Shown here piece by piece: positions 3,537 to 63,206 of a stretch of 64,000 nt of DNA; within the stretch, counting starts at the first letter, position 1, and every line of letters starts with the position of its first letter. Origin of the DNA: Escherichia phage BB1; sequence record NC_106597.1; one strand, 5' to 3'. The translations under genes were made by a program, and so were the position numbers. Under the pieces are notes generated by a model that was given only the letters and a program-made list of their open reading frames with translations, was not told the origin of the DNA and did not search any database.

Positions 3537-3540
3537 TAGA

Positions 3541-3580
3541 AAACCCCAGTGGATTTTGTCCACTGGGGTTTCTTTTTAGC
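3541..3580. terminator. bidirectional rho-independent terminator between convergent genes
   Basis: Hairpin CCCCAGTGG-attttgt-CCACTGGGG followed by TTTCTTTTT on plus strand and by a T-rich run on the minus strand. Confidence 0.75.
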
Positions 3581-3582
3581 TA

Positions 3583-7485: not shown

Positions 7486-7907
7486 TATTGAGTTACCCCA
7501 TCGCTAATATAAACTTTGCCTTCCATAATACGGAAAGAGCTAGCAGCGCTACCAACAGCTGTTCTAGTAATTATAACATCGTAGTATCCAGCTAACCTTT
7601 GTCTAGGATTATACCTATCTCTTTCTTTAGATGCTTTAGATGCAATAGTAGTTACAGCATTAACAGGTAAACTTATAGATGCTACACCTTGTTTAGCATC
7701 TATAATAGAAGTGGTAAAGGATGCTAAATTTTCAGCCCCATCCTCTAAACTACTCTTAATACTTCCTCTAAGAGAGAAGCCAGTAAGATCTACTGGCTTA
7801 GATGTAGCAGGATAAACACTATCATCTACATCCATAAATTGCATAAGTAAACCATAAGGTACGTTTTCGTCTACTACTAAATCAATAACTCTATTTTCTG
7901 TACTCAT
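7485..7907 (-). CDS. tail collar protein (p132-like)
   Basis: 140 aa, start overlaps the tail-fibre stop; length and position match T5 p132. Confidence 0.5.
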
Positions 7908-7912
7908 TATTT

Positions 7913-10051
7913 TTACCTTATATGGATATACCCGTTTTGCAGGTCTATCTTCATTTTGTAAGATCCCTCTGGATTAGAGGATAGTGCGGCTGCACGATCA
8001 TATATAATATTTACACCAATTTGTGATAAGAAAGCGTTATTAGCAACAATTTTACTAGCAGTTACCGTACCATTAACTATCATATCACCATGTAAAACCA
8101 TTGCAGGGCTAGCCCATGCTGAACCATTCCACTGCCTAGTGAATGCTGTTCCTGGTGCCCCACTTTTATACTCGGTTAATACATCATATTTAACAGGACC
8201 AGTACCAAAATTAGATGTAAAAAACGAATTAGCCTGAGAATCATTCCATGCCGTTAAGTTAGCAATAGCAAGAGAATACATTCCAGGACCACGTTGTCCG
8301 TCTGCTCCTGGCCGCCCATCAGCACCTGGTTTTCCATCGGCACCTGGTTTTCCATCAGCACCTGGTAGTCCATCAGCTCCCGGCTTACCATCTACCCCTT
8401 CTGTACCGCTCCATTGAACTACATCTGACCAACTAGTTCCGGATACTAATTGATTAGTAACAGGGTCCAGAGTACCCGTAGAACAGTAAATATTCTGAGT
8501 ATTAGATATTCTATTCGGCGGAGTTTTAGACCAACCAGAAGGTGGGTATGCAGGGCTTGTTGGTTTAGCAGGTAATGAAGTACCTAGAATATAAATAAAT
8601 ACTGTTTGCTTACCTTGTATACCTGTTTCTATATCAATATCGCCATTAGGTGTACCAATTACAACTCCACTAGAAATTCTTAATGTATCACCATCGAAAC
8701 GAATATATTGCGTAGCATTACCAATATCTACTTTTGGCTTCGCAGTAGCATTATCCATGCCCATCCAAATACCAGATTTTGTATCTCCCCAAGTTTTACC
8801 TTGAGTATAAATTGCTGGGTTGTCTTGACCAGTTAAGTTAGTCATTACAAAGTTCGCAGCATTAATGGTTTTAGTTATTACACTTCCATCAACGTTAATT
8901 ATCTTTTTAATAGGGTCAAAAGATATTGGTGCTTTTCCTTCTGCATCTAGAAGACCTATATTAATAGCACCTGTAGCAGCATCTATTAGGAAGGTTTGTT
9001 TCCAGGTAGATCCATCTTTGATCTTACCCTTAATGTACGCGTAATTTACTTCGATACCAGTTTCATTAACAAAACTATTATCTAATGGAGTACTCTCATT
9101 TAATATAAATGTCTGTACTGCGGAATCAGTAACATCTTGAGCATCTGGTCCCCAGGCAATAGATGACACTTTAAATTTATGCTCTACTTTCCATGGAAAT
9201 GATATAATTGTTGCTGACTGAGCAGCACCCACGTTGATTTTTTGTGCCTTAGTCCATCCAGTTCTAGCAAATTCTGCTGAATCTATATATGATAGAACGA
9301 ATTCACGAACGTTGGCGCCTGTCCCTCTATTCCAATCCCATTGCACACGTAAATCATAGCGTTCTTTACCATCCGCTATACGCGCAGCTTTAAACACAAT
9401 ATTAACAGGAGCTGTAGGAGGTACAAAGTTATATCTAACTTCAAAGACAGTAGGATACTCATAGTATCCAGATGAATCAATAGTTACTCCGTCTGGCAGG
9501 GATACTTGTCCAGAAATTCTTACCTTATAGGATCCGATTGGCACACCACCAAACATAATAGTTGGCATCAACGCACCAACATAATATTTAACCCACGGAT
9601 TATTAGCATTAGAATTATTTTTTAATTCTATAGTACAATAATCAGCTTCTCCTGTAGTATCTATATAAACTATTGGCGCTCCAACACCTACGTCTACAGG
9701 CTCTGATTCACATCTAACACCTGTAATTCTAGGTGCTGACTTCATTTTAAAAGTTTGTTTATCAGATAGATTAATACCTATCTGAGCATTAAGTAGTTCA
9801 GAGTCTATTATAGAATCATAAAATGCACCCTGAACTTCATAAGTTGTTGTAGGTTTTAAGTTATTAATAGTTACAGAAAAGGTATCAACTCCAGTAAAAT
9901 CTCTACGAGTAACGTTGCTACCTTCTTTAAGCCAAAAAGATCTACCTATAACGTCATAATCAGAATAGATAGAATGCTGGATATACGCCAACGTATATCC
10001 AGTTAAGACGCTATTTAGAACCATTTTAGCTGGTGCATTATTTGAAATCAT
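7913..10051 (-). CDS. baseplate / central fibre protein (pb4-like) with collagen-like repeat
   Basis: 712 aa; contains [36 protein letters not shown]; position between collar and baseplate hub genes. Confidence 0.6.
8285..8400 (-). repeat. collagen-like G-X-Y coding repeat inside the pb4-like gene
   Basis: Three near-identical copies of ggttttccatc(g/a)gcacctggt on the plus strand encoding the GKPGADG heptad. Confidence 0.7.
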
Positions 10052-26533: not shown

Positions 26534-26647
26534 AGTGTTCTCCTCAACTGTATGAATATAGTATACATAATCGTATCGAATTTGTAAAGGGGATTTTAAA
26601 ATGCAGGAATGGGATACCAACTGAGTAGTATCCCATCCTATATTTAT

Positions 26648-27964
26648 TTATTTACCACGGGAAATAGAGTAAATTCCATAGCGCAGCGCATCACAAAGGT
26701 GAGAGTTAGCATCATGACGTGGTTTTTCACGTGATAATTTCTCTTCACCCTCTTGGAAATCCCACTTGTAGTTCTGCAATGCATGGATTAATGAGGAACA
26801 TGAAGCATCTACAATAATCTTACCCTGCTGGAATAGCGCTTGCAAGCATGCTAGACCGTCTAGGACAGATTTTTTAGCTGGAGCTGATGCAATTTCATGT
26901 TCATAAGCTAAGTCCTGACGGAACTGAGCTGCGGCAGAGTCAACAAAAACACGATCAACTTTATAACGATCTATACAGTGCTGAATATACGCAGCATGCT
27001 GAGCTGTAGTTTTCTCCGCCTGCTGGTACTCTTCTAATACATAGTAAGTATCTGTATCATAGTGATATTTAATAGTAAGAACTGCTGTAGGGTCACGATA
27101 ACCAACGTCAATGCCAAGCAACGTTTCGAATGCCTCATCATCTTTAAAGAAGTGACGCATACCTTTGAGGTCTTTAACATGATCGATAGCATTAAAGGTA
27201 TCAAAGATCTGACCTTCGAATACAGAGAAGTCAGCCTCGTATTCCTGGCGGAAGTAGTTTTTACTAACTGTACGGCGTGCTTCCTCAATATCATTCAAGT
27301 CAGCACGCGGGTTATCACGATATGTACCATGAATAGATACCCAGTTAGGCAACGTATCATCAAATCCGTAGGCGTAAAACTCTTTAAACCAGTTACCTCC
27401 ACGAGGGGTGGAAATAAATAGAGCCTTAGAATTAGGTTTATCTAGAGTAGGACGCAGCTGAACCCTGAAGGCATCACCTCCCACATCGGAAATTGCCGCC
27501 TCGTCAAAAATGATAAAATCATATGAACGTCCAACTGCGGAGTCAGCCTGAGCCGCAGAAGCTAGTTTAAATAGAGAACCATTAGCTAACTCAATCTCTT
27601 TATCTTTAGCGTTCTCACGTTCGGTTTGTAGGCCATACTTCTTAATGAGACCACGAATCTGAGACCATCCGATATTGGCCAGTGAGTAGTTAGGGGCAAC
27701 TACTAGCACCTTCACATTAGGTTCCAGCAATTTTAGGAACCCAAGAGTATATGCTATAAAGGATTTACCTACACGGCGTGACACACACGCCGTTACAAAA
27801 CGATGTCTAGGATCTTCTAGAGCATTGATAATTGCTATTTGAGGACCATTAGGTGTAATACCTTCTTGCGCTAGTATTCCCGAAACAGGCAGACGAAAGA
27901 AACGTTTGTCTATTCCGAAATCAATAACATCTACTGTGTTAACGTAGGGTCTTGATACTTCCAT
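26648..27964 (-). CDS. terminase large subunit
   Basis: 438 aa; Walker A-like RRVGKS, ATPase then C-terminal nuclease-type acidic residues. Confidence 0.85.
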   Translation of the reverse strand: MEVSRPYVNTVDVIDFGIDKRFFRLPVSGILAQEGITPNGPQIAIINALEDPRHRFVTACVSRRVGKSFIAYTLGFLKLLEPNVKVLVVAPNYSLANIGWSQIRGLIKKYGLQTERENAKDKEIELANGSLFKLASAAQADSAVGRSYDFIIFDEAAISDVGGDAFRVQLRPTLDKPNSKALFISTPRGGNWFKEFYAYGFDDTLPNWVSIHGTYRDNPRADLNDIEEARRTVSKNYFRQEYEADFSVFEGQIFDTFNAIDHVKDLKGMRHFFKDDEAFETLLGIDVGYRDPTAVLTIKYHYDTDTYYVLEEYQQAEKTTAQHAAYIQHCIDRYKVDRVFVDSAAAQFRQDLAYEHEIASAPAKKSVLDGLACLQALFQQGKIIVDASCSSLIHALQNYKWDFQEGEEKLSREKPRHDANSHLCDALRYGIYSISRGK

Positions 27965-28446
27965 TACTTCTTACCTCCAGTAGCTAGGGAAGTAATTAAG
28001 TCCATGTAGTTTTGATCCCCGGCTCCAGCAATAATATTATTCTGGATATTGGTCTGACTAGCAGGAGCTCGGACGGCAGCTTTAGCTTTTTCTAGCTCCA
28101 CCATCATTTTCATCTCTTCCATCTTCATTTTATGTGCCTTCCATAGAATATCCATAATATCCTGGTCAGAACCCATGCCAGTTTCTTCCAGTTCCTCCAG
28201 CTTACGTTTAATAACTTCATCTAGAACACCGAACAAACGATCTCTGTTACGGAAACCACTTTCCATAAAAATATCGTTTAAATAGTTCTTAACTTCACTA
28301 CGATTCATAATATCTCGGAAAGCAATTTCGGACATTCCAAGACTACGTGCGGCAGAAGGCACATCGCTACCACACTGTAAATAAGCTTCAATTACATCCA
28401 TCCCTTCAGGGGACATAAGATCTGGTACTAATACATCATTTGCCAT
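27964..28446 (-). CDS. terminase small subunit, putative
   Basis: 160 aa with predicted HTH ([16 protein letters not shown]); directly upstream of and overlapping the TerL start. Confidence 0.5.
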
Positions 28447-28456
28447 ATTTCCTCCT

Positions 28457-30229
28457 TTAGGTAAGGCGTTGAACTGTTACTCGTAGTCTCGGTAAGAAAA
28501 CTGCAGAACCTAAACTAACGTGTAGTATAACACCTAATTCTGCATTACCATTACCAAGATTTTTTATTGTATATATAAAACTGTTTCTACTAAAAGCTCC
28601 GCTATCTGGAGTATATTTATAAGCAGAAGTAGTATGGAAAGGCACTAATTTTCCAGGAGGAAGAACTAAAATTTGGTGAAATATAGCATCCCCTCCCGTA
28701 TAACTTTGTGATTTTCTTCCTTGCACCTGAAAAACACTACCATTCCACGTATTTACTGGTAACCCAGCAACATTAAGGTTACCCGATAATATTTCACTAG
28801 TTAGTATAACAGTAGAGTTATTATTTGGTAGGCCTAGTCCAACTGTTGCTAGTGATTTATAAACATTACCAGTGCCCGGATAGGTCGGAGTAATATCATT
28901 ACCAATATAGGCACTAGCCACATTACCGGATAATAGGCGTAAAGGTATTGATGAAGGTCCCCAGACAACACCATTCTCATTACCAATAGTATTATTATTA
29001 GAGTTTACATACCAGGTCTTACTAGCAGAGAACTTATAAATACTAAGTTGTGCTCTTGTACCACTATAGTTGACTGGTGCCCATATAGATCCTTTGTTAG
29101 AGCATACAAATTCACATCTTCCAGTAGTATCCCCAAACACCCCACCATGCGCAGCGTTTACTCCAATATACTCCATATCAGCACGAGAACTTAGATTCCC
29201 TAGAGCATTCTGATTAATAAACTTCCAACCAGTAGTAGATAACTTAACTCCCTTAATAGTAAAGTTGGACGGAGAAATTATTATGTCAGAACCTGTAAAG
29301 GGATTGCTAGAAACAGACATACTACCATTAGAATACCTTAGGTTCAGCACATACCATATAACTTTTGTAGGGGTTACTCCATAACCATCTTGAACTATTT
29401 TTGTATTAGCTGATTGACTTACTAACTTAGTAGTAGAACCTCTACAAACATATCTATACCCACCATCACTAAAGTGCTGTACTATATTGCTAGGGATTGT
29501 TTGTTTGTATCCAGCATACCCCCTAATATTAGAATTACATACATAAAACCAGTTGTGCCCACGTTTACCAGCCCCCATTGGAGCCATCCAGTTAGGATCC
29601 CAATAGTACGTATCACCTGAAGATATAGGAACAGAAGTACTTCCTATAGGATACCCTAGTTGTTTGAAAGTTTCAGCTACAGTAGCACCTACAGGTGCAC
29701 CACCACCTGGTCTTACAACACCATGATAAGTACTATGTAGTACAGTACCGCCAGTACCACTTCTAGCTATAGATTCTTCATGCCCTAGAGAACTATTATA
29801 GGAATAAGTACCTGAAGCTAGACTATTACCAAAAGCAAATCCAGCAGTTTGACTTAAGCTAGCAAATGATCTAAAAGGATCGGCCTGAGGATCGGCCTGA
29901 GTAGAAGAAAGAAACTGCCCAACTTGAGATTGAGTACCATTCAAAAAACCACGATGGGTACCATTAACTTCTATAGCTGTTAGTATAACTCTACCAGGAT
30001 CATTACTCTTTAAGTTAGCTATTGCAGAAGGCATCTGGCATACATAGAAACCATTCCCAGCACTACTTAATGCGCTCTCATAAGTGCTTTCTACTAATAC
30101 GAAGGGCATATCAGAATGAAAAATAGTATTAGTACTAGGGTTTTTATGAGCATTAATATCTCCACCACTAGCAGTATTTAGTGATAATACAGTTTTACCA
30201 TCACTATATTTTCCAGCGAAAAAACCCAT
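28457..30229 (-). CDS. receptor-binding tail protein (pb5/Oad-like)
   Basis: 590 aa Gly/Ser/Thr/Asn-rich protein divergent from the llp-like gene, as oad and llp are arranged in T5. Confidence 0.6.
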
Positions 30230-30254
30230 ATAATCTCCTATTATAAAAATGTAT

Positions 30255-30283
30255 TTGCTTTCATCCCTCTATTTTGCTATAAT
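30255..30283 (+). promoter_or_regulatory. strong sigma70 promoter of T5 PN25 type driving the lipoprotein gene
   Basis: TTGCTT - 17 bp - TATAAT followed by AGATTCATAAATT; AT-rich upstream region. Confidence 0.7.
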
Positions 30284-30314
30284 AGATTCATAAATTAGAA
30301 ATGGAGAGATAAAT

Positions 30315-30581
30315 ATGAAAAAGTTTGTGATTGCACTAGTTGCCGCAGTTATGTTATCTGGTTGTGCACCTGCTCCCAAACCATTTTGTACAGGATTTGT
30401 AAAATCTTTTGGTGGTGTGGGAGAAGAACATTACGGTCTCAAGGTTCAAAAAGTTCGTATTAAGGGAGATCGCTTTCCAGTAGTACAGCTCCGTACTAAG
30501 TTTGGATGGTGGGATCTCAGTCAGTTTGACCTTAAATATGGTGATTGTAAATTTAAACTAGAACAATCTAATTACCTGTAA
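30315..30581 (+). CDS. llp: lytic-conversion lipoprotein (Llp-like receptor-blocking lipoprotein)
   Basis: 88 aa; signal peptide with lipobox LSGC; divergent from the receptor-binding protein gene. Confidence 0.7.
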   Translation: MKKFVIALVAAVMLSGCAPAPKPFCTGFVKSFGGVGEEHYGLKVQKVRIKGDRFPVVQLRTKFGWWDLSQFDLKYGDCKFKLEQSNYL

Positions 30582-30628
30582 TTAGTATAAAACAAAAAGA
30601 CATCCAAGTAAACTAAATTTTTTATTTC

Positions 30629-30967
30629 TTGGATGGTGTACTGGCAGAAAACACTATGCAAGAAAATGAGAAGCCCTTCCAGGAACCCATGCCACTTGAG
30701 ATGAATCCTAGGGCAAAAGCAGTTCATGATGCAATTAATGAAATCATTCAGGATGTCATACAAGACACTATGGAAGATGTAATGGGAACATCATTTCTTC
30801 TAGAAGAATCTGGATTTGATGAAATGATGGATCTCGTAGGAACAGTTATAATGGTTCGTGCAATTGCTAGAATATTCCAAATACCACATTTACGGGAGCA
30901 TGAAAGACATGTCAAACGGCAACAAAAGAAAGAACAGGCGCGGAGAAGTGTACGAAGCGTGGATTAA
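30629..30967 (+). CDS. hypothetical acidic protein
   Basis: 112-aa ORF; 3' part overlaps next ORF in another frame, true extent uncertain. Confidence 0.3.
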   Translation: MDGVLAENTMQENEKPFQEPMPLEMNPRAKAVHDAINEIIQDVIQDTMEDVMGTSFLLEESGFDEMMDLVGTVIMVRAIARIFQIPHLREHERHVKRQQKKEQARRSVRSVD

Positions 30968-31043
30968 CATTTACGGATTTGGCTTTGTATTATTCCTAAT
31001 CTTCGTAGGTTTTTGGTTAGCAGCTATGGCGGGGTGGATCTAA
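30900..31043 (+). CDS. small membrane protein
   Basis: ORF 30858..31043 with likely internal start; C-terminal hydrophobic helix; stop overlaps next start (TAATGG). Confidence 0.3.
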   Translation: MKDMSNGNKRKNRRGEVYEAWINIYGFGFVLFLIFVGFWLAAMAGWI

Positions 31044-31150
31044 TGGAATGGGTAATTATTGCACTACTGGGGATTGTGATTATTGGGCAGTGTATTTTAG
31101 ATAATCACTTAGCTAGAATTGAAACCTTACTATCGGAGAAACGTAAATGA
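31043..31150 (+). CDS. small membrane protein (35 aa)
   Basis: MEWVIIALLGIVIIGQ...; below the ORF-track threshold; ATGA overlap with next gene. Confidence 0.3.
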   Translation: MEWVIIALLGIVIIGQCILDNHLARIETLLSEKRK

Positions 31151-31341
31151 TGGAAGTGGCAGTTACACTAATAGTAATATTAGTCTGGGTAATCCTCATT
31201 GCCTCTCGTATCGTGTATATTCGCCTAAAAACTCTAGAAGCCCAGGTAAAACAACAACAAGTTGCGCTAGAAAAGCTAGTACTACTGCAACGGTGTGATA
31301 GCACCCGTATTCTGCAAATTGAGAAGGAATTAGATGTTTAG
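31147..31341 (+). CDS. small membrane protein (64 aa)
   Basis: N-terminal TM helix followed by a coiled-coil-like segment. Confidence 0.4.
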   Translation: MMEVAVTLIVILVWVILIASRIVYIRLKTLEAQVKQQQVALEKLVLLQRCDSTRILQIEKELDV

Positions 31342-31579
31342 TATTGTAATTGCTTTTATTATCGGGATACTCGCTGGAGTTTTCGGGACGACTGCGGCAA
31401 TCAATAAGCATCGGGAATATATTGCGGGAGTGACGCGGGAGATTGCGGAAAGGGAGCGGAAGTTTGACGAGAAACGTGCGGAGTTTGAGCGGAAGTGGTC
31501 GGATGGATCTCGGGCGTCGCGGAAGAGATTCCGTGAGTTCAGACCAGAACACAGGTTTGATGACCCTTCTATGCGCTAA
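31334..31579 (+). CDS. small membrane protein (81 aa)
   Basis: N-terminal TM helix then Arg/Glu-rich tail; start overlaps upstream gene. Confidence 0.4.
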   Translation: MFSIVIAFIIGILAGVFGTTAAINKHREYIAGVTREIAERERKFDEKRAEFERKWSDGSRASRKRFREFRPEHRFDDPSMR

Positions 31580-31744
31580 TTTGGAAATCTCGAAATTTCA
31601 TAAGATTACACATGGAGGTGTGCCCAGTGGGTCGGGGGAGAATACTTAGTCTGCTAACCGCCACCCCCCGTTACTATTAGCAGGGTAATTGTTTCATCCT
31701 GCAACCATTTTAATCGCAGGATGAAATTATTTCAACTTTAATTA

Positions 31745-32479
31745 TTACGCAACTTTTAATTTCTCAATATATTGTTGCGGGCTGCAACTATATTCTGCGC
31801 GTTCTTCCTCGGTCATACCTTCCCAGCATAGTTTTAAACGGTCAGCTAGGAATTGATAATCATTATCATCGTCGAGCGATTCATCAATAAAGGTTTCACC
31901 TATTAATGTTACACCTATTGATAGAATATCATTAACGGCTTGCGCGTCCAGCGTTTTAAATCCGTATGATGCTGCCGCCGATAGCACACCTTTATGATCA
32001 TCAATCATTGTAAAATCAGCGTTCGGATATAACTGTTTAAATAATTCAAAATAATAAGATTTATATACTGCGTCTTTGCTGTGGTATATTTCGCTAACTT
32101 TATCAGCTTTAAAATATTTATGCAGTGTGTCGCGGGAAAATACGCGGATATTGCTATTTCCTCGACCTCGCAAGCCTTGTTTGCGCAAGAAATAATAGTC
32201 CGACTTACTCATCAATCGAGCGGTGCAAATAATGTTTAAAGTATTTGCATCATTCATGCACTGGCGCATATATTCAACCAATGGCAATAAAGTATCTTGC
32301 ATTATTAAATGATGTTTGCAGGCTTCATTTTTATATTTATTTAAATCTAAATTGCCCTCATTATCAAAGCAAGGCGCTACACGATGGAAAGAATTAACGA
32401 TAGTGCCGTCTAAATCCCAAATCATGACGCGGGAAATATGCGGGAAATTACGGAAAGAATTAATAATAGATTTATTCAT
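31745..32479 (-). CDS. dmp: HAD-family 5'-deoxyribonucleotidase (Dmp-like)
   Basis: 244 aa; HAD motif I WDLDGTIV near N-terminus; length matches T5 dmp. Confidence 0.6.
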   Translation of the reverse strand: MNKSIINSFRNFPHISRVMIWDLDGTIVNSFHRVAPCFDNEGNLDLNKYKNEACKHHLIMQDTLLPLVEYMRQCMNDANTLNIICTARLMSKSDYYFLRKQGLRGRGNSNIRVFSRDTLHKYFKADKVSEIYHSKDAVYKSYYFELFKQLYPNADFTMIDDHKGVLSAAASYGFKTLDAQAVNDILSIGVTLIGETFIDESLDDDNDYQFLADRLKLCWEGMTEEERAEYSCSPQQYIEKLKVA

Positions 32480-32558
32480 TTGTTACGTTCTCCATTAAAG
32501 GGATTTAGTTATTTCAGCATTACCCGCTATTTATAAGCGGGTAATAATAAATTAACTA

Positions 32559-32954
32559 TTAAAGACCATAAGCCAACGCATCGGCAATAAAACTAACATC
32601 CTCACCTGATACGCTGGAACGAATACCAGCACAAGTATATACTTTTGCACTGATCAATTGATCATCAAGGCAAGCGGGGCAAGGCGCGACAACTGCAAAG
32701 GCAAGGCCGGATTTTACGGCGTCGATGATAATCGTTTCTTGCTTCACCGTATCAACATAAACACCTTTTGCTTTAATATGACTGGTTAGTTTGCCCTGCG
32801 TATATGCGAATGTTGTAACCTGTAAAGCGTCATTGAAATCTAATAGATCATCAATAACATGCCCCGCCTCGACGTGGTAACGTTCGCCGTTAGAATAAAC
32901 CAGAACAATTGAGGATTGAGCGCGGTCAAATGGGATGCGATTAGATTTAGCCAT
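32559..32954 (-). CDS. hypothetical protein
   Basis: 131-aa ORF in the pre-early block. Confidence 0.4.
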   Translation of the reverse strand: MAKSNRIPFDRAQSSIVLVYSNGERYHVEAGHVIDDLLDFNDALQVTTFAYTQGKLTSHIKAKGVYVDTVKQETIIIDAVKSGLAFAVVAPCPACLDDQLISAKVYTCAGIRSSVSGEDVSFIADALAYGL

Positions 32955-32990
32955 GTTTATAACTCCAGTTATTTTAATAAGGAATTTAAT

Positions 32991-33281
32991 TTATTTGATA
33001 ATAATCTGCATTTGGTACGGCGTTAATTCACCGTTTACGGGTAAATTATTATCACTCAACCATTCATAAAAAGCGTCATCATCATCAAAAGGAACAACAT
33101 CATTATCACGATAATCGACCGTAATAATACCATCAGTATTAGTTTTAGCGGCTAGGATAGGCCCGAAGCTGTAAACTTTATCGGATTCCATTTCATCCGG
33201 TGAAATGAATGCTTTTTCGTCCAATGTTTTGGGTAGTGTAACTTTCATTTTTTGACTCCTGTAATAGCGGCTATATTTCAA
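32991..33281 (-). CDS. hypothetical protein
   Basis: 96-aa acidic ORF. Confidence 0.4.
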   Translation of the reverse strand: MKYSRYYRSQKMKVTLPKTLDEKAFISPDEMESDKVYSFGPILAAKTNTDGIITVDYRDNDVVPFDDDDAFYEWLSDNNLPVNGELTPYQMQIIIK

Positions 33282-33302
33282 GCCGCTAGGGGAATAATTT
33301 AA

Positions 33303-34967
33303 TTATGCGAAGAATTTACCATTCTTAAAGTCGATCAAAGTACGCTGACCGTTTGCATAGGTAATTAAATGCGTTTGCGTCCAGCTTGACGCGCCAACGT
33401 TGTAACCCATATCCAGACTACCAGCTACTCCAGCGGTATAAACGCCACCGTAAATGCTAGCGGTATGGGTGTGTCCCGTGTTTAGCTTGCCCAATTTCTT
33501 AAACTGTTTAGGATTGCCACGACTGCCGTTAATGCCGTTGTGACCGTGTACACCGCACTCAATGCCTGCAATCTTGAAAGATTGGTCAGTGGTTAGGAAA
33601 ATGGCGTTAAACTCACAACCTGCAACCTTGCGCAGCGCATAATCTAGCACGTTAAAAGTATCATCATGATCACTGATCGCCGCGTAAATTGCAGCATTCA
33701 GGCGGTGATATAGTTCGGCGTTGGCTGGATCGTCTTTGATGTTAGCATTACGATCATCTAACCAGCGGGATAGCGCCAAATCGTGATTAGATTCAACAAT
33801 GATTGTTTGAGAGAAATCACGTTCCATTGATTCCAGCACGCGCCCCGTATCGATAAGATCATCCAGAACTTTATCACGTCCAGCGGCATACTGTTTTGCT
33901 AGGAATACACCGGATGCACGGTTATGATGATTGCGCGATGTAAAATCATGCACGTCATGAATAAACTGATATTTAGGTTTAAGAATATCAAGCAAGCTAT
34001 TTTCGCCAGCCCATGACGCAACGGCACAATCATCATCTAATTTTTCGGCGTGAATATCGCCATATTGCAAGCCTAAAACATGCCCCGACGTTTCATAGCA
34101 TCCAGCAGGAGTAGCGCAAACATTCAGATCATAAAACACCCCGCTTTCATCCATCGTTTCAAGCTGGCGAACAAAAAATTCCCCGTCGTCGTCGAACTCA
34201 ACAATAAGCGCACCGAAGTTATGCAGCGCCTCGGCCTTTTGTCCTGCTTTCTGCTGAATGTAGTTTTTGAGCGTTGCCGTTCCGGTTGAATACATACGGC
34301 GCACTACTTCACCTTTTAAAGCTGGCACGCTTTCAGCGGTAATTTTAGCGTGACCAATTGCCAGCCCTTCAATATTTAAAGCCGTTGCAGTTTCTGCAAA
34401 TCCTGAAAGCGGATAGTCTGCGGTAGGCAAAACATTAATTTCAGCCATGAAAGCAAAACGGCGGTTATTTAAAAACACGTTTTTGCTGCAAATATATTTA
34501 TCAAATGCGGGATCGTATTTGATACCGTCTGCACCTTCTCCATTCTGGAAGCCGTTTTTATTATAAATATACTTAGAAACAAGCAAATCAGCACCGATAT
34601 ATTCAGCGAATTTTTCCAGACTTGCTAAAAAGTTTTTATGTGGGAAAGTATTATTCTGAATCGACGTAATAATAAAGCGTTTACCCTGTTTTACTTCCCA
34701 TTGCTCAACCGTACTAGAAACAATCCCCGCCGCTTCTGGGCGCTCATCGTTTTTAATGGCTTTTGCTACTTTTGCCGCTTTCGGTTTAGCTGGTTTATTT
34801 GCTTCCAGCCAGTCGCAGATAGCGGTTGAATGCTTCGTTGTATCGTAGACCGCTTTTGATATATCGTCGCAGACTTCCAGTTTAGTAGCGCGCAGACGTT
34901 TACCATAGAAATTAAAGTCAGCGGCCATTTTCAGGATAACGGTTTGTTTTTCTGCGGAAATAATCAT
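33303..34967 (-). CDS. A1: pre-early protein A1-like (calcineurin-type metallophosphoesterase)
   Basis: 554 aa; metallophosphoesterase motifs GDIHAE, GHNG, GHTH; size close to T5 A1. Confidence 0.6.
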   Translation of the reverse strand: MIISAEKQTVILKMAADFNFYGKRLRATKLEVCDDISKAVYDTTKHSTAICDWLEANKPAKPKAAKVAKAIKNDERPEAAGIVSSTVEQWEVKQGKRFIITSIQNNTFPHKNFLASLEKFAEYIGADLLVSKYIYNKNGFQNGEGADGIKYDPAFDKYICSKNVFLNNRRFAFMAEINVLPTADYPLSGFAETATALNIEGLAIGHAKITAESVPALKGEVVRRMYSTGTATLKNYIQQKAGQKAEALHNFGALIVEFDDDGEFFVRQLETMDESGVFYDLNVCATPAGCYETSGHVLGLQYGDIHAEKLDDDCAVASWAGENSLLDILKPKYQFIHDVHDFTSRNHHNRASGVFLAKQYAAGRDKVLDDLIDTGRVLESMERDFSQTIIVESNHDLALSRWLDDRNANIKDDPANAELYHRLNAAIYAAISDHDDTFNVLDYALRKVAGCEFNAIFLTTDQSFKIAGIECGVHGHNGINGSRGNPKQFKKLGKLNTGHTHTASIYGGVYTAGVAGSLDMGYNVGASSWTQTHLITYANGQRTLIDFKNGKFFA

Positions 34968-35057
34968 AGTAATAAAACTCCATTAAAGGGATTAGATTAA
35001 TAACGGCAATATTGCCAAATATAACGCCTCAAATAATAGGCGTTATAATTTGCAACA

Positions 35058-35255
35058 TTAATTTAAAGGCACTAGGCTAGAACTAACACCACAAGCAACG
35101 GCAGCGATAAAACAAAGCAAGCCCAAACGTTTTGCTAACTTAGATTTACGTTTAAAATAATATGAATCTAAATCATTTTGAAAATAAGCAAATAATAATG
35201 AGGCCGCCATAATAAACAAGCCTAGAATTAATGATTCAGTAGGAAAGAAAATCAT
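35058..35255 (-). CDS. small membrane protein
   Basis: 65 aa, two hydrophobic helices. Confidence 0.3.
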   Translation of the reverse strand: MIFFPTESLILGLFIMAASLLFAYFQNDLDSYYFKRKSKLAKRLGLLCFIAAVACGVSSSLVPLN

Positions 35256-35346
35256 TTTTTAAAACTCCTGATTTAAGGGAAGAAAATAACTATCGCTAAA
35301 CAGTTATATTATTGCCCCCTCACTAAAAGGGGGCAAGGTATAACTA

Positions 35347-35754
35347 TTATTCGCCTGCGGCTTGTTTTACTTCATCGGCAACGCCTAACAGTTGCGCTAC
35401 TGCGTCCAGCGTTTCAAGTTTTGCACTTTCCAGACTTGCCAGATCGTCGGCGTCTTTGATAATGCCGGAATCAATAGCATGTTTAGCGATAACGCGCACA
35501 TAGTGAGCTTTACGCACAGAGCTACCGCCACCAACTTTACGCGGCTTATCGCTTTTTTGATAGGCTTTTGCACTGGTCAATTTTGAGCGAACGGATACAG
35601 GGGAAGCCGCGCCAACTGCTTTTGCAATCTCTTTTAAACCGTCGCTATTTGCGAAATCTAAACCGTTTTCATTAATTAACTGCTGATACATGGAAACAGC
35701 TTTCTGAGTGTTTTCTTCATTCCATGCGAATTTTGCGGTTTTAACGTTAGTCAT
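35347..35754 (-). CDS. pre-early DNA-binding protein, possibly A2-like
   Basis: 135 aa, basic central region; position downstream of the repeat region and upstream of the A1-like gene. Confidence 0.35.
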   Translation of the reverse strand: MTNVKTAKFAWNEENTQKAVSMYQQLINENGLDFANSDGLKEIAKAVGAASPVSVRSKLTSAKAYQKSDKPRKVGGGSSVRKAHYVRVIAKHAIDSGIIKDADDLASLESAKLETLDAVAQLLGVADEVKQAAGE

Positions 35755-35852
35755 GATATAAACTCCTATTAGTTTAATTTAAGGGATTAGATTAACTTAA
35801 TGTTAATCGTTATATCCCCCTGAAATAAGGGGGATATAAAGTTAACACTAAA

Positions 35853-36104
35853 TTACAGAACAGCTTCCCATTTTTCGTTACGTTGAACAACCTTTACAAC
35901 GTCGCCGGATTTAACGCGAACGTTAAAAACAGGTTTGCCGTTGTTACTACGTTCATTTTCAACATATACCGCGTCGATTGTATCAAACGGCATAAGCGCC
36001 GCGCCTTTAATACGTTCGGCCTTTCCGGTTAATTCATCCGTTTTAGTAACGAAAGGAATAAAAACGGATTGACCAATTTTTGGCGCGGTAATAACGTTTT
36101 GCAT
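35853..36104 (-). CDS. hypothetical protein
   Basis: 83-aa ORF. Confidence 0.4.
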   Translation of the reverse strand: MQNVITAPKIGQSVFIPFVTKTDELTGKAERIKGAALMPFDTIDAVYVENERSNNGKPVFNVRVKSGDVVKVVQRNEKWEAVL

Positions 36105-36332
36105 AATATAAACTCCGAGTTATTTGGTGGATTGTTCCGCATTACCTGCTAGAAAGTAGCAGGTAATAAGTAACAATCCGCTCGCCAGTATAATCGATTT
36201 AAAGAACTCCACGTAGGCCGCTATATCCCAGTTAGGGGGCGGGATGCATTATGGTAAGCACCGACCGTCAAATTTTATCAAGTTATCGCTCTTATCGAAC
36301 TGGGTACATCTTAAAACCTATCGGCTAGGTTG

Positions 36333-36536
36333 TCAAGCGGTTTTTTGCAGTTTTTTATGATTTTCTTTCAAGTCAATCATAATATTTCGCCAGATCATTT
36401 CTAAACCTTGCTGGCGACCTTTCTTGTACTGCGTGAATCTATATTTTACTGATCTTTGTGCTACTGTCAACAAGTTTTTTGTTTTGCTATCTAGTGCCTT
36501 AATAGGCTTGCCAGTGATCAAAAGCGTTTGTTTCAT
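36333..36536 (-). CDS. hypothetical basic protein
   Basis: 67 aa, Lys-rich; first ORF downstream of the DnaA-box region. Confidence 0.25.
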   Translation of the reverse strand: MKQTLLITGKPIKALDSKTKNLLTVAQRSVKYRFTQYKKGRQQGLEMIWRNIMIDLKENHKKLQKTA

Positions 36537-36945
36537 ATCGTCGATTCCTTATAATGAATAAGTTTACCGCCGATAGGCTTTAAGATGTACCCAATTTTTA
36601 AAGAGCGTGGCGGTAAACTTCCCGCCGTGTAGTTCGTCATTGCCGCCCTACGAAATAAATAATAGGGGATTCCCGAAAATGGCGCAACCTTATTTTTGTA
36701 AAGAAACGTAAAGACACGATCCACCGGACGGCGTGCGGCGACGGCCTAAAATTAAAAGAAACGGGCGCGCGAATACCACAAAACATAGCAAATAGGCAAG
36801 TAATTTTTTCATTTATATTTACTTTGCCCTACTTGACAAAACCTAAAAAGCTCGTGACAGCGATAAACGGCTTATCCCTTTATGATGAGATGGCTAAAAA
36901 CTTCATCGCGTTCTAGGGCGTTTTAGGCGCATTCTAGCCTTGTTG

Positions 36946-37020
36946 ATAACTTATCCCCAGAAGCAAAAATGAAATTTTCCTAGTTATCCACTTGACTTTT
37001 ATTTTCCAGTGGATAACTAC
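36946..37020. repeat. DnaA-box-like sites with a 12-bp inverted repeat
   Basis: TTATCCCCA (36951-36959); TAGTTATCCACT (36981-36992) and its reverse complement AGTGGATAACTA (37008-37019) around a TTGACTTTTATTTTCC spacer. Confidence 0.6.
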
Positions 37021-37139
37021 TTATTTTATAAAATAAATTAATTGACTTTTATCTGTTAGTATGCATCGGAAAGATAGCAGACTAATAATTGCTAGGATGA
37101 TAATCATGCTGGTGGATTGTAACGGCTTAAATTATTAGC

Positions 37140-37262
37140 AGACTATTAATCACGGAAAATCTCATTAGCCAACTAACTATTTCATGATATATAATATACT
37201 TATAAATTAATGAGAAATAATAATTATAATAAATAATAACTACAGTAAATAATAACTATAAG
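37140..37262. repeat. AT-rich tract with reiterated AATAATAACTA-type units
   Basis: About 120 bp of low-complexity A+T sequence between the DnaA-box groups. Confidence 0.5.
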
Positions 37263-37311
37263 AAACTATCGGCCTAAGTGAGAACCACTATCATTTAAGT
37301 TATTCACAACG

Positions 37312-37408
37312 TTATCCACAGCACAAAATAATTTGACACGATAGGCGGCGATATAAGGACTTTTGCACAGACTTATCCACAGGTTATTCCACTGTATAAA
37401 TATACAAG
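37312..37408. promoter_or_regulatory. two consensus DnaA boxes plus palindrome (left arm of a large imperfect inverted repeat)
   Basis: TTATCCACA at 37312-37320 and 37373-37381, followed by CTGTATAAATATACA. Confidence 0.6.
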
Positions 37409-37674
37409 GTAAAAAGGTAGTGTTAACAACTGCAATCAATTTTGAGCGGCCTAAATCGCATTCTAACGAGCTAAACGCTGCGGAGTAATATTAAAGTAAA
37501 GCCTTAATGCGGCGGCCTGGTGGCTTCACCGTGTTTTGCTCTTTATTACACCGCTGCGCGGTTAGCATAAAATTAGACGCTAGGCAAGGAAAATAAAAAG
37601 GTAAAATAATATTTGCCTATGCTAGAAAATTACCTTTATCATTCACTCACCGATTAACGAGGGAGGCCGAACAA

Positions 37675-38670
37675 ATGAGGCTGTATAAACCAGATAACGC
37701 AACCGTCTTAAAAGGTGCATTGCGCAACCTGCTGGAGGGTAGCAAGTCAACCAGCATTAAACATTTTATTAACAAGGCTGAAACTATTCATCAAAACTTT
37801 TTTGATGATTATGACGGTTATGATATAGATAGTTTTCTACCACTATATAAGCAAGGGGCAACGCTTGTTTTATATAACCGTGATTGCCATATCTTTACAG
37901 GCAGGGGAGCGGGGCCGGATGCCGATTTTATTATTGCGCAGGGCAATAATATTGTTGCGTATCATAGCAATTCAGGCCGTCAATCATTTAATATAAATGG
38001 TTTTGAGCTTATTGGACTTGATCTGATAAATGGACTTTCTAGTATTGAGGGATTTTTAAATGTTATCTGGAAGTATTTACCCGCTGGATGGCATAAGCCG
38101 GATAATGACGGATCTCAATATACCGCTATAATGGCTTTTGATGGCGACGGTAATTTTTTGTTACCACGGGAGCTATACCCGTATATTTATGATGGGGATA
38201 TTGAAAGCGCTGGTTTTTCTTTCTGGAAAGATGAAGATCAGATTATTGACAGTATAGAAAACCATGCTGTAAATTCTAACACTCAAACTACTGAAAACAA
38301 AGGAAAAAATACCATGACTAAGATTGCTAACATCGTTGCCGCTAATAAATCCGCTGTTGTAAATGCTGCAAAACTGGAGGCGGGTAAAATTGCATTAACT
38401 CAAATCACGAAAGTAGCGGCTAAAAAAGCGCCGTTTATGATTAAAGGTTATATTGATACGCCGATTGGTCGTGTAGTGATCGCTAACCTGCTAAGTGTAG
38501 CGGTTGACCAGTACGCACCGAGTAACCAAAAGGCGAAAGCGGTAGCAGGTGCAGCTATGGAGGCGGCAATGTTGGAAATGGTGCAAAGTTTTAACATCGC
38601 TGAAATGATTGATGAAATGGTAAAAGGTATTGATATTTCTACTTTTACCACTAGCACCGAAAGCGAGTAA
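37675..38670 (+). CDS. hypothetical protein (331 aa)
   Basis: SD GAGGGAGG upstream; first gene of the plus-strand island. Confidence 0.5.
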   Translation: MRLYKPDNATVLKGALRNLLEGSKSTSIKHFINKAETIHQNFFDDYDGYDIDSFLPLYKQGATLVLYNRDCHIFTGRGAGPDADFIIAQGNNIVAYHSNSGRQSFNINGFELIGLDLINGLSSIEGFLNVIWKYLPAGWHKPDNDGSQYTAIMAFDGDGNFLLPRELYPYIYDGDIESAGFSFWKDEDQIIDSIENHAVNSNTQTTENKGKNTMTKIANIVAANKSAVVNAAKLEAGKIALTQITKVAAKKAPFMIKGYIDTPIGRVVIANLLSVAVDQYAPSNQKAKAVAGAAMEAAMLEMVQSFNIAEMIDEMVKGIDISTFTTSTESE

Positions 38671-38735
38671 TAATAACTAGCGGGGATTATTTCCCCGCTT
38701 TACTATTCCCTTGTTAACTAATAGGAGGCTAATAA

Positions 38736-39230
38736 ATGGCTGAGGAAAAATACGGCTTCTCGCTAGGGGAAGTGAGCACGGCTAAACACGATATGATCAT
38801 TTTAGTCGATTGTCATACAGGTTATTGCGGAGAAGGTTGGACGGAGGAACATTTTGTTCCTGCTGGTACGGATCTGGACGCTTTCGCTCATGAAATGGCT
38901 GTTGATAATGCTTCTCGTTTTGGTAGCGATGGCTATGAAGACGAAGAAACTGGCGAATGGTATGAAAATGAAAACGTATATGCAAGCCTTTATCATTATC
39001 AATTAAGTAAATCCGGCACATATGTAAACGGCGGCGATCCTATTAATTCCGTCATGAAATTAATTATTAAACATGGTGGCGTCGAGATAATTGATAACAA
39101 AGCGGTAATATATGCAAACCGATTAAAACAGCTTATTTATATTCCTGATAGTACCCGATGGGAGGAATATGCTGTTTTGCATGACGAATTAAAACGATGT
39201 TTCAATATTGAAGCCTTACAAGTAGTCTAA
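38736..39230 (+). CDS. hypothetical acidic protein (164 aa)
   Basis: SD TAGGAGG upstream. Confidence 0.5.
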   Translation: MAEEKYGFSLGEVSTAKHDMIILVDCHTGYCGEGWTEEHFVPAGTDLDAFAHEMAVDNASRFGSDGYEDEETGEWYENENVYASLYHYQLSKSGTYVNGGDPINSVMKLIIKHGGVEIIDNKAVIYANRLKQLIYIPDSTRWEEYAVLHDELKRCFNIEALQVV

Positions 39231-39335
39231 TGTAAAGTTTTGTAAAGGTCGCCTTTTATGGTGGCCTTTTTTGTTATAATGCCTTTACACCAAAACGGTG
39301 GATTGAAAATTTTCCCAAAAATTTGGAGGCTTAAA

Positions 39336-39566
39336 ATGGTTGCTTATTCTTCTGCTAGTCATCTGTTTACCGCGCAAGGCTGGGTATCTAATCGTGCTGT
39401 CATCTATGAAATGGTGCAGGAGTTCGGCATTGCTAAAACCTATAATACCATTCAGGAACTATATAACGCCGATAAAATCGATCAGCAAACGGCTGGCTTT
39501 TTGCTGGATACCCTGAAAGCTGAACATTGCACTAAAAAACAAGCCGCTAAAATTGTTTTAATGTAA
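39336..39566 (+). CDS. hypothetical protein (76 aa)
   Basis: ORF 39258..39566; likely start at 39336 preceded by TGGAGG. Confidence 0.4.
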   Translation: MVAYSSASHLFTAQGWVSNRAVIYEMVQEFGIAKTYNTIQELYNADKIDQQTAGFLLDTLKAEHCTKKQAAKIVLM

Positions 39567-39615
39567 TTAATAACGGGGCGATACTTTCGCCCCGATAACT
39601 AGGAGGCTATCACAA

Positions 39616-39765
39616 ATGGTTATTTTTCGATCTATTTTAGCGGGTATCTTGGGCGCTATTTTATCGTTATTTGCGATAGCTTTCGGCGTTCACGCTGTTA
39701 TTATTGGCGCTGGCATTGCCGTATTTTCTTATCTGTTAGGCTGCATGACTAGTAAAGGAGAATAA
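39616..39765 (+). CDS. small membrane protein (49 aa)
   Basis: Below ORF-track threshold; SD AGGAGG 7 nt upstream; one long hydrophobic helix. Confidence 0.35.
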   Translation: MVIFRSILAGILGAILSLFAIAFGVHAVIIGAGIAVFSYLLGCMTSKGE

Positions 39766-39767
39766 AA

Positions 39768-39980
39768 ATGATTCGTAACGTTTCCCTTGCACGTTCGAAA
39801 GGCTTTAAGCTGGTGGATGTAAACACGTTTGAGCGGGAAGATTGTAAAATCGAATATGTAGCACGTAACAAAAATGCCTTTCGTGTTACCGAGAAAAAAT
39901 TCGACAAGCGCGGCAACGTGATAGCTGAAACAGTTAAACATTTTGCCACCTTTTATGCTGCCTTTCGTGGGGTGTTATAA
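39768..39980 (+). CDS. hypothetical protein (70 aa)
   Basis: Starts 2 nt after the previous stop. Confidence 0.4.
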   Translation: MIRNVSLARSKGFKLVDVNTFEREDCKIEYVARNKNAFRVTEKKFDKRGNVIAETVKHFATFYAAFRGVL

Positions 39981-39981
39981 A

Positions 39982-40326
39982 ATGGTTATTTATGAAGGCA
40001 ATCGCTTTGTTGCTAATTGCCGTCCGGCATTATTAGCAAACTATTTAAATCAGCTTTCCCCAGCCTATAAGGGCGTTATTAATATTTATGAGGGCAAGGC
40101 GCATTATAAAATTAATGCGGTCGTTGCCCGTGAACTAGCGTTTCAATTTTTGACTTTTGCATCTTGTGACGTTCAGGTTATGGGGGAAGCATTAATTGCA
40201 GAAAATGAAGAGGATTTTATTAATATTTTCCGTAAGGTATGCACTGAGCGCTTGATAATGAAAGGCGCGTATATTCAATCAACTGCGGAAAGTATTGAAA
40301 CAGCATTTCGAAAGGTGGCGCAATGA
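39982..40326 (+). CDS. hypothetical protein (114 aa)
   Basis: ORF 39943..40326; likely ATG at 39982 adjacent to the previous stop. Confidence 0.4.
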   Translation: MVIYEGNRFVANCRPALLANYLNQLSPAYKGVINIYEGKAHYKINAVVARELAFQFLTFASCDVQVMGEALIAENEEDFINIFRKVCTERLIMKGAYIQSTAESIETAFRKVAQ

Positions 40327-40392
40327 AATTATATATTTTCGTTGGTAATAGTAAGGCCGCTATTGGCAAAAATATATTTACTAGTGGTTATT

Positions 40393-40587
40393 ATGAGCAA
40401 TAAAATTATTGTTACCAAAACCAGTACAATGGTTGATGTTTTTTACGTTCCCGATACGCCGGAAAACCGACAAGCGGTCGAGCGTGGCGAGTATGATAAA
40501 GTGATTTATGATCACGATGGTTATTATCAACATTTGGTGGATTCCTACGGGGAGGAGGAAAAAATCACGCACCGACTACCAGACTAA
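40393..40587 (+). CDS. hypothetical protein (64 aa)
   Basis: ORF 40342..40587; internal ATG at 40393 more plausible. Confidence 0.35.
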   Translation: MSNKIIVTKTSTMVDVFYVPDTPENRQAVERGEYDKVIYDHDGYYQHLVDSYGEEEKITHRLPD

Positions 40588-40844
40588 TAATCACAGGGCA
40601 CAACTACTAGGAAGTGCCCCCCAATTCTCAAATGAGAATGATTCTCATTTGACCGCGCCCGAGATGGTTAGCCTGCTAATGGTTAGGGTGTTACGTGTCG
40701 CCTTGTGTGATCGTTAGCGAGCTAACCAATTTTTAAGCCTCCTCCAATTTTGCCATTGTTTTAGTATCCCCGCCAAAATTAAACGCGTTAGAATGCGATC
40801 TAGGACGTTTTAACGCTATATTAGAACTATTCACTGCGCAGGAA

Positions 40845-40956
40845 TACTGTATAAATATACAGTAGGATAAGCTGTGGATAAGTCTGTTAATAACGCCTCA
40901 AAATGGCTAGGATTCTGTCAAGTCAAATCGTGCTGTTAATAAGTCTGTGGATAACT
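40845..40956. promoter_or_regulatory. two consensus DnaA boxes (reverse orientation) plus 16-bp palindrome (right arm of the inverted repeat)
   Basis: CTGTATAAATATACAG at 40847-40862; TGTGGATAA at 40873-40881 and 40946-40954. Confidence 0.6.
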
Positions 40957-40974
40957 TAAATAACAGTGTTTCTC

Positions 40975-41160
40975 ACTTCCATTCTTAAATGCAAATTATT
41001 ATCATTTGTATTTCACTATCTAACTAATAATCATTTCACTTTTTAAATGAGAATCGTTTCACTTCCTGAATAATTTTCATTTCACTTTTTAAATGCGAAT
41101 GATTCTCATTATCATTCCGCTTTTTAAATGCGAATTATTATCATTATCATTCGCATTCAG
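40975..41160. repeat. AT-rich tandem repeats
   Basis: Three copies of TTTCACTTTTTAAATG(A/C)GAAT-like units and ATTATCATT reiterations. Confidence 0.6.
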
Positions 41161-41182
41161 GCTAGCAGGGCAATTGCCCTGC
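41161..41182. repeat. perfect palindrome CAGGGCAATTGCCCTG
   Basis: 16-bp palindrome centred on AATT, immediately before the direct-repeat array. Confidence 0.5.
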
Positions 41183-41188
41183 GCTTTT

Positions 41189-41788
41189 GTGCAAATCCGA
41201 CATTGCTCCATGGGTGTTACGTGCGGGCGTGTATGTGCGAATCCGACAATTTTTGGTAGTGTGCAAATCCGACCCGAAAAATTTTTATAGTGTGCAAATC
41301 CGACAATGAATTTTCCTAAAAACTCCAGCAATCACGAACTGCGTTCGAATCCTGTGGGGTATGTGCAAATCCGACATGGTTTTTCTAGGATTAAGATGTG
41401 CGAATCCGACAAGATTTTTGTGACTTCGATTGGAGGGTGTGTGATTGTGTGAGTTTGGGGAGAAGTTGAAAGAGTGAGAGAAATTTGGGGGAACTGCGGG
41501 AGGGGTGCATGTTTGGTGCGGAGCACCTGATTTGCGGGGATTTTGTGGAAGAGTTGAGAAGATTTGGGTTAATTTGAGATAAGTGCAGATAAAGTAAAAT
41601 TTTATTAGCTAAATGGGGCAAAATAGCTTGACAAGTGAAAATTTCTGTGGCTCCAAAAACTCAGGCAATCATGGGCCTTCGGCCCGAAATAATGCTGCCG
41701 TTTTCAGGAGATTATATGTTCCTAAAAACTTAGGCAATTGTGCAAATCCGACCAGTTTTTAAACTCTTGTCAGTGTGCAAATCCGACA
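41189..41788. repeat. array of 8 direct copies of a 14-bp motif GTGC(A/G)AATCCGAC(A/C)
   Basis: Copies at 41189, 41235, 41261, 41292, 41363, 41398, 41740, 41775, all same orientation, irregular spacing; non-coding. Confidence 0.7.
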
Positions 41789-42286
41789 GTAATTTCTAGA
41801 AATGTGTTTTGGAAAAATGTCTTCTAGAAATAACCGCCCTCCCAATAACCGCCCTGTATTAACCGCCTATTGCTGGAGTTTCTAGGAATATGAAAACCGC
41901 CTAAGTTGACTAGAGTTTTCCTAGAAACTTAGGAGTCTAGAAGAAAGTGTTGTGCCATCCTAGCAGATGAGCGGCAACAGGTGTATCATCTTGAACACAA
42001 ATATTGCCTTTAAATATTATAAGGTAAATAAAAGTTAATATACCCCCATTTCATGAGAGTTAGTCCCTCTAGGCGCGTGCGATTTGATACATCCTCCTGA
42101 GTCTCGGGGAGGAAGAACAATTGACGAGAACCTGCGAACAGAACCGTCATCAAGTGTTTTCCTACGAGGAATGATGTAAATCTACGGCCTAGAGGTAAAA
42201 ACAAGTTGATGTTTTTAATCTATGAGATTATTATAACACATTATTCTCACGAATGTCAAGCAAATTTCGTTACTTTTAAATTTTCG

Positions 42287-59678: not shown

Positions 59679-59692
59679 ACATAACCTTAATT

Positions 59693-59769: not shown

Positions 59770-59770
59770 A

Positions 59771-63205: not shown

Positions 63206-63206
63206 A

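Follow-up and report, generated by a model that had tools for sequence, protein, structure and literature searches.

The 64,000-nucleotide stretch of DNA analysed here (the window) carries, in order, genes for the terminase, a receptor-binding protein and llp, four genes for single-helix membrane proteins, dmp, A1 and A2, an injection-stop-like (iss-like) region, early genes and tRNA genes (Table 1). This order, in which late genes are followed by dmp, A1 and A2 and then by an injection-stop-like region, had been proposed in the first-pass annotation, and is borne out both by the open reading frames and by their assignment to PHROG families; our assessment of it is based on the ORF list, PHROG family scans and homology, with no statistics involved. 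The terminase, the structural module and the tRNA cluster are of the T5 type and arranged in the T5 order, the late module being colinear with that of T5.

Table 1. Positions of genes, repeat boundaries and other sequence features in the window.
Feature	Position	Strand	Basis or remarks
Large terminase subunit (T5.155 homolog)	26648-27964	-	438-aa ORF; T5 annotation of aligned gene
TerS, small terminase subunit (T5.156 homolog)	27964-28446	-	phrog_3802, E 2.9e-90
Receptor-binding tail protein (pb5/Hrs type), last late structural gene	28457-30229	-	phrog_4815, E 1.5e-254
llp / Cor-type receptor-blocking lipoprotein	30315-30581	+	phrog_1119, E 1.8e-26; signal peptide, lipobox LSGC
Accessory ORF, 112 aa	30656-30967	+	phrog_16810, E 1.3e-53, match starting at residue 10
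Four small membrane-protein genes	~30900-31043, 31043-31150, 31147-31341, 31334-31579	+	T5.159-T5.162 homologs; phrog_6369, phrog_5851, phrog_6447
Single copy of long direct terminal repeat	31621-41653		10,033 bp; pre-early / first-step-transfer region
Estimated left physical genome end (first repeat base)	31621-31622		Alignment of relatives' repeat starts
Left boundary in T5 Moscow (T5 position 1) and T5 st0 (right-repeat start)	31621
Left boundary in MM-1, SIA3lw, SPC35 and BF23	31622
Left boundary in Kenya phages K37 / K16	31637 / 31641
Left boundary in pork29	31729
Predicted hairpin, 12-bp stem	31691-31727		Minimum-free-energy fold of 31580-31744; just inside repeat
dmp, deoxynucleoside-5'-monophosphatase, pre-early	31745-32479	-	phrog_415, E 1.1e-55; aligns to T5 dmp 124-858
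A1 DNA transfer protein, pre-early	33303-34967	-	phrog_1745, E 2.8e-244
A2 DNA-binding protein, pre-early	35347-35754	-	phrog_1725, E 3.4e-52
Left arm of 131-nt inverted repeat (I1), Davison's repeat region 2	37276-37406		73% complementary; four DnaA-box matches
iss-region equivalent	~40583-41583		Aligned to annotated T5 iss 9140-10149; right arm and direct-repeat arrays
Right arm of 131-nt inverted repeat	40848-40978		Two DnaA boxes, 40873 and 40946
Conserved GCGC of T5 major single-strand interruption ('7.9%' nick)	41181-41184	-	T5 nick annotated at 9748/9749
Right boundary in K37	41624
Estimated right physical genome end (last repeat base)	41653-41654		Repeat or record ends of T5, BF23, MM-1, SIA3lw and Sepoy
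Right boundary in SenS-3	41657
tRNA genes (n=12)	59450-63554		After early genes

The degree of similarity to T5 varies along the late region. Across the two terminase genes, nucleotide identity is 94-96% (window 26552-28473 against T5 106522-108443), while similarity between the receptor-binding gene and T5 oad is almost nil at the nucleotide level. The receptor-binding protein is instead 99.2% identical to that of phage PS3-1, 96.4% identical to D1G hrs and 68.8% identical to its BF23 counterpart, and the cassette that it forms together with llp is not T5-like. Between 30325 and 30859 the alignment to T5 is reduced to 45 nt (30747-30791), which fall inside the accessory ORF at 30656-30967; this ORF is an addition relative to T5, and in phage MM-1 a comparable gene is not annotated in the corresponding gap. 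Alignment to T5 resumes with the small membrane-protein genes (T5 L005 3777-5912 aligns to window 30859-33000, spanning these genes into dmp), each of which encodes one hydrophobic helix (hydrophobic 19-mer scores of 2.3-2.8), and which are the final genes of the unique right end of the genome. Beyond them, the left end of the repeat carries dmp, A1 and A2 in succession on the minus strand, colinear with T5.001, T5.004 and T5.006, respectively. At the far side of the window, T5 sequence from the tRNA region (28,745-32,071) aligns to positions 60608-63127.

The membrane-protein genes and the convergent dmp gene are separated by an intergenic region of 165 nt (31580-31744), and the hairpin predicted within it probably terminates transcription in both directions. 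Alignment with relatives of the K37 type places a hairpin at the same position with a different stem sequence. The predicted fold of this stretch improves only slightly on those of shuffled sequences (z = -1.9), and a simple terminator scan did not report the hairpin at 31691-31727, the loop of which exceeds the length that the scan allows.

An injection-stop-like region had also been claimed in the first-pass annotation, and its presence is corroborated by inverted arms with DnaA boxes, by direct repeats and by alignment to the T5 iss. Matches to the DnaA-box consensus TTWTNCACA are concentrated in the two arms of the 131-nt inverted repeat, which hold six of the nine found in the whole window, those of the left arm lying at 37300, 37312, 37361 and 37373. 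Short direct-repeat arrays span 40613 to 41794, and the repeat families of the region comprise D1-D4 and I1-I5. Such a region, large and untranslated, with inverted repeats and DnaA boxes at the right end of the terminal repeat, has been described in T5-like phages by Davison (10.1101/866236). The sequence CCCTGCGCTTTTGTGCAAATCCGAC, which surrounds the '7.9%' nick of T5, is identical in the window, and a minus-strand nick would be expected between 41184 and 41185.

To place these features in the context of a complete genome, four stretches of T5 (NC_005859) were aligned to the window. Positions 1-31620 of the window align to T5 78,102-111,531, and positions 31621-63127 to T5 from position 1 to about 32,071. 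The alignment is continuous across the junction of the T5 right repeat (between 111,531 and 111,532 in T5, and between 31620 and 31621 in the window), and is likewise continuous across the end of the T5 left repeat (between 10,219 and 10,220 in T5, and between 41653 and 41654 in the window). The segment bounded by these two junctions is thus colinear both with the left repeat of T5 (1-10219) and with its right repeat (111532-121750). Since both junctions are read through, the repeat of ~10 kb is present once; furthermore, a complete virion record would finish where the right repeat ends, and the continuation of the window into early genes again implies one repeat copy. The proposal of the first-pass annotation, that the sequence is a collapsed or circularised representation of the genome, is therefore supported, with the window reading across both boundaries of one terminal repeat. 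Its argument from gene order, with late, pre-early and early genes and tRNAs in one piece, is correct. The late-to-pre-early junction itself is natural and not an artefact: in every T5-type virion the unique right end meets the right repeat there, which makes the receptor-binding gene, llp, dmp and A1 truly contiguous, and the flagged position is where the left virion end coincides with this inner edge of the repeat. The telltale feature is instead the read-through at 41653, which lies ~10 kb beyond the interval that had been flagged (30300-31760).

These observations make it very likely that the phage is a T5-like member of the Demerecviridae (Markadamsvirinae), a group whose virions contain linear DNA with a direct terminal repeat of ~10 kb, and that the sequence gives this repeat in a single copy at 31621-41653. 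What the analysis shows directly is which genes are present, that colinearity with T5 extends over both repeat boundaries, and that these boundaries agree with those of relatives whose ends were defined from sequencing reads. With T5 (NC_005859 / AY543070), in which left and right repeats of 10,219 bp contain the first-step-transfer pre-early region, the window shares the gene order flanking both repeat boundaries, the succession of T5.159-T5.162 homologs, 42 nt and the start of the repeat, and a dmp stop codon located 123-124 nt inside the repeat. Also shared are A1, A2, the inverted repeats with DnaA boxes, the iss region and the 7.9% nick site, and the repeat ends within the same conserved sequence, directly after ...GTGAAAATTTCTGTGGCTC. 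Besides the receptor-binding cassette and accessory ORF noted above, the window differs from T5 in having one repeat copy in the record rather than two, in a shorter repeat (10,033 bp) without the hegG HNH gene, and in an extra 164-aa ORF at 38736-39230. This last ORF is also found in BF23 (OR083247) and SIA3lw (PP094244), which, together with MM-1 (PV577657), share with the window the same pre-early gene set including the 164-aa ORF, as well as boundaries at 31622 and 41653. Nucleotide identity between these three phages and the window is ~82-94%, depending on the segment. In contrast to the window, which retains a single-copy, pre-rebuild arrangement, their records have been rebuilt with both repeats (114.5-118 kb).

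Single-copy records of this kind account for most database entries of related phages. A 12-kb query (28000-40000) matched 494 phage records, mostly of Salmonella and Escherichia phages, and those that were examined belong to the Demerecviridae. Among the best 30 of these 494 matches, 21 hold one repeat copy and measure 57-112 kb (102-112 kb in all but one), while records with both repeats measure 116-121 kb; many of the single-copy records have been rotated such that their first base lies at the small terminase gene. The top match, Salmonella phage SCF (PP735124; 108,556 bp), is 94.6% identical over the full 12-kb query, and the highest identities over long stretches in the phage collection are 94-97%; a 38-mer spanning the left junction had no match in the viral_contigs or genome_contigs collections. 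Like other collapsed or rotated GenBank records, that of SCF holds one repeat copy, with the receptor-binding gene, llp, dmp, A1 and A2 contiguous; the window differs from it in representing another isolate, opened at another point. A shorter query of 400 bases centred on 31621 identified 436 matching places in 330 records, and a second copy is therefore possible in at most 106 of these records (about a third). Such findings are in keeping with previous reports that most assemblers emit one copy of a terminal repeat with an arbitrary first base (PhageTerm paper, PMC5557969), and that many GenBank records of T5-like phages have dmp, A1 and A2 beside late genes because assemblers mishandle long repeats (Davison, 10.1101/866236). 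The phenomenon is thus already known, common and well documented, and nothing in T5 biology is changed by it.

As judged from the sequence, the single copy would fit a collapsed or circularised assembly, or replicative DNA. Replicating T5 circles have the length of the genome minus one repeat, as seen by electron microscopy (Davison, 10.1101/866236, citing Bourguignon and Everett), and the window has the same arrangement as that circular form; this arrangement matches the routine outcome of assembly as well as it does this natural replicative form. A faithful record of intracellular DNA, either a circle or a concatemer junction, is nonetheless an improbable source of the sequence when compared with collapse of virion reads by an assembler, given that phages are normally sequenced from virions and that repeats are collapsed by assemblers by default (PMC5557969). 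The same sequence is expected from assembler collapse, and the positions of the virion ends are unaffected either way. Far less credible still is a misassembly or chimera, in which the adjacency of late and pre-early genes would match no real molecule. Assembly errors near repeats do occur in some GenBank records of T5-like phages (Davison, 10.1101/866236), but the window follows the natural junctions of full-length T5 base for base at both places, and neither junction shows rearrangement, duplication or truncation. In addition, an independent metagenome contig of 15.9 kb crosses the left junction with 94% identity. The correspondence of both junctions to those found naturally in complete genomes led us to reject a misassembled or chimeric origin.

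Retaining collapse of the repeat as the preferred reading, the positions of the physical genome ends can be estimated from relatives in which they have been mapped. A repeat at both ends of virion DNA has been demonstrated in BF23, SIA3lw and the Kenya phages: the termini of BF23 (OR083247) were set by PhageTerm, the 106,623-bp SPAdes contig of SIA3lw (PP094244) was reorganised by PhageTerm to 116,541 bp, and the termini of the Kenya phages were established from PhageTerm, twofold coverage and PFGE. The record of Sepoy similarly states 'repeat region predicted by PhageTerm'. Sequence homologous to the boundaries of relatives is present in the window for six records at the left end and for five at the right. 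The left end of T5, T5 st0, SPC35, MM-1, SIA3lw and BF23 maps to 31621/31622, leaving 42 nt to where the last late-region gene stops and 124 nt to the dmp stop codon. This position upholds the first-pass suggestion that a physical end should lie in or near 30300-31760. At the right end, the boundary of Sepoy also falls at 41653, even though this phage belongs to a different genus (Epseptimavirus).

Agreement among relatives is not complete, and long repeats with boundaries shifted relative to T5, by tens of bases or more, represent an unlikely alternative. The left boundaries of K37 and K16 are displaced rightward by 16-20 nt and that of pork29 by 108 nt, while at the right end K37 stops 29 nt short and SenS-3 differs by 4 nt. 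Against such a shift, the left-end sequence of the window is of the T5/BF23/MM-1 type, unlike the K37/pork29 type, and all five records with the right-end sequence type of the window stop exactly at 41653; moreover, some of the deviating annotations may stem from method rather than biology. Conversely, some boundary annotations, e.g. that of SPC35, may simply repeat that of T5, in which case they are not independent. As the window carries the T5/BF23/MM-1 type near its left end, our best estimate places the left end at 31621/31622 and the right end at 41653, and we infer from this sequence similarity that the phage has the same termini as these relatives. The left virion end, which enters the cell first, would then correspond to 31621/31622, and the right virion end to 41653.

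The value of these findings is practical, in terms of correct genome annotation, rather than conceptual. In annotating the genome, 31621/31622 should be taken as its opening position and the 10,033-bp repeat appended on the right. The true virion genome would accordingly exceed the collapsed sequence by ~10 kb, and each virion would carry dmp, A1, A2 and the other pre-early genes twice. The junction between late and pre-early genes should be retained as real, with only the read-through at 41653 being peculiar to the single-copy representation.

In the window, the late-gene unique right end runs into the repeat, and the repeat into the early-gene unique left end. The single copy in the sequence would result from assembler collapse, and the same one-repeat arrangement may also be present in the cell in the form of replicating circles or concatemers. 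The packaging substrate would then be circles or concatemers in which each junction holds one repeat, and the terminase (encoded at 26648-28446) may cut these at two fixed sites ~10 kb apart, with the repeat being duplicated by strand-displacement synthesis from staggered nicks, as in the T7-type model. Such a model is generally assumed for phages with long direct terminal repeats. We know of no experimental demonstration of the mechanism that makes the ends of T5, and no experimental account or biochemical data on T5 end formation were found in the literature searched.

Both boundaries lie in non-coding sequence that is conserved across genera, a degree of conservation that fits site-specific cutting. 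The conserved non-coding blocks extend over ~31573-31660 at the left and ~41600-41700 at the right, the latter being nearly invariant between Tequintavirus and Epseptimavirus. A search of the window and of T5 for a motif common to both cut sites, made for direct as well as inverted copies, yielded only the 7-mer AAATTTC, which is at chance level. The T5 nick consensus (Pu|GCGC) has one minus-strand match 45 nt outside the left cut, a weak signal against a background of 0.6 per kb, and no match within 300 nt of the right cut. The lack of a motif common to both cuts, together with a nick-consensus match near the left cut only, raises the possibility of two different strand-specific events. We accordingly offer as a speculative proposal, which we consider doubtful, that the two conserved blocks may be the recognition and cleavage signals of the T5 terminase, and that, instead of a single symmetric cut, a separate strand-specific event may generate each end. 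The nick-consensus match beside the left cut persists even in a relative whose adjacent coding sequence has given way to an HNH gene.

Copies of a 22-nt repeat family lie on both sides of the right boundary of the terminal repeat, five within it and two further copies just past it, and the right genome end therefore falls inside the array rather than at its edge. T5 is similar in this respect, as its repeat region 3 (9194-10409) is listed as running on past the point where the left terminal repeat stops (Davison, 10.1101/866236). The sequence around the major "7.9%" single-strand interruption of T5, CCCTGCGCTTTTGTGCAAATCCGAC, is identical in the window, where it directly precedes the first TGTGCAAATCCGAC repeat.

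Features at and around the terminal repeat (window coordinates)
Feature	Position	Strand	Remarks
103-aa ORF, phrog_16810	30656-30967		Extra ORF between llp and the T5.159 homolog
T5 nick consensus match	31573-31576	minus	Pu|GCGC on the nicked strand; ~45 nt outside the inferred left cut
Two hairpins	31640-31727		Just within the left end
164-aa ORF	38736-39230		Inside the terminal repeat
"7.9%" site sequence	41181-41185		CCCTGCGCTTTTGTGCAAATCCGAC
22-nt repeat family	41187-41417 and 41738-41794		Consensus approximately TGTGCAAATCCGACA

Near the inferred left cut, a sequence matching the T5 nick consensus is kept in every aligned relative whose sampled sequence extends that far (7 of 8); the 300 nt on either side of the right cut contain no GCGC. 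The lone match is weak evidence, as the background stands at 0.6 per kb. It is also kept in Salmonella phage LVR16A (NC_048000), in which the match is no longer coding and an endonuclease gene (L012, 456-929) takes the place of window sequence 31534-31573. Similarity to the window restarts precisely at the GCGC, 48 nt outside the left terminus, which indicates that the terminus-adjacent block has been kept in this phage. HNH or putative homing endonuclease genes flanked by dmp on one side and the last of the small membrane-protein genes on the other were observed in LVR16A, NR01, ECOP18, HildyBeyeler and SuperGirl.

Alignment showed that both hairpins within the left end are retained in the divergent subgroup K37/K16/pork29, with stems that differ from those of the window (TTAG..CTAA in the window versus AATGAG..CTCATT in the first hairpin, and TTTCATCCTGC..GCAGGATGAAA versus GTCACGG..CCGTGAC in the second). 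Such retention despite differing stems suggests that structure is under selection, with termination of transcription between the convergent genes as the probable function.

Outside the repeat, the receptor-binding protein and llp cassette (28457-30581) shares hardly any nucleotide similarity with T5. Its receptor-binding protein allele is uncommon (≥95% identity in 15 of 532 records); it shares 99.2% identity with Salmonella phage PS3-1 and 96.4% with "Enterobacteria phage D1G hrs", but only 61-73% with most other relatives matching at full length (BF23, 68.8%). The adjacent phrog_16810 ORF, which overlaps the start of the T5.159 homolog, looks like an accessory insertion, since T5 matches merely 45 nt of this stretch and no comparable gene is annotated at this location in MM-1. 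Within the repeat, T5 lacks an equivalent of the 164-aa ORF, and the T5 alignment is interrupted between 38674 and 39227. BF23 and SIA3lw have an ORF of equal size annotated at the matching position. Conversely, the hegG HNH gene of T5 is absent from the window.
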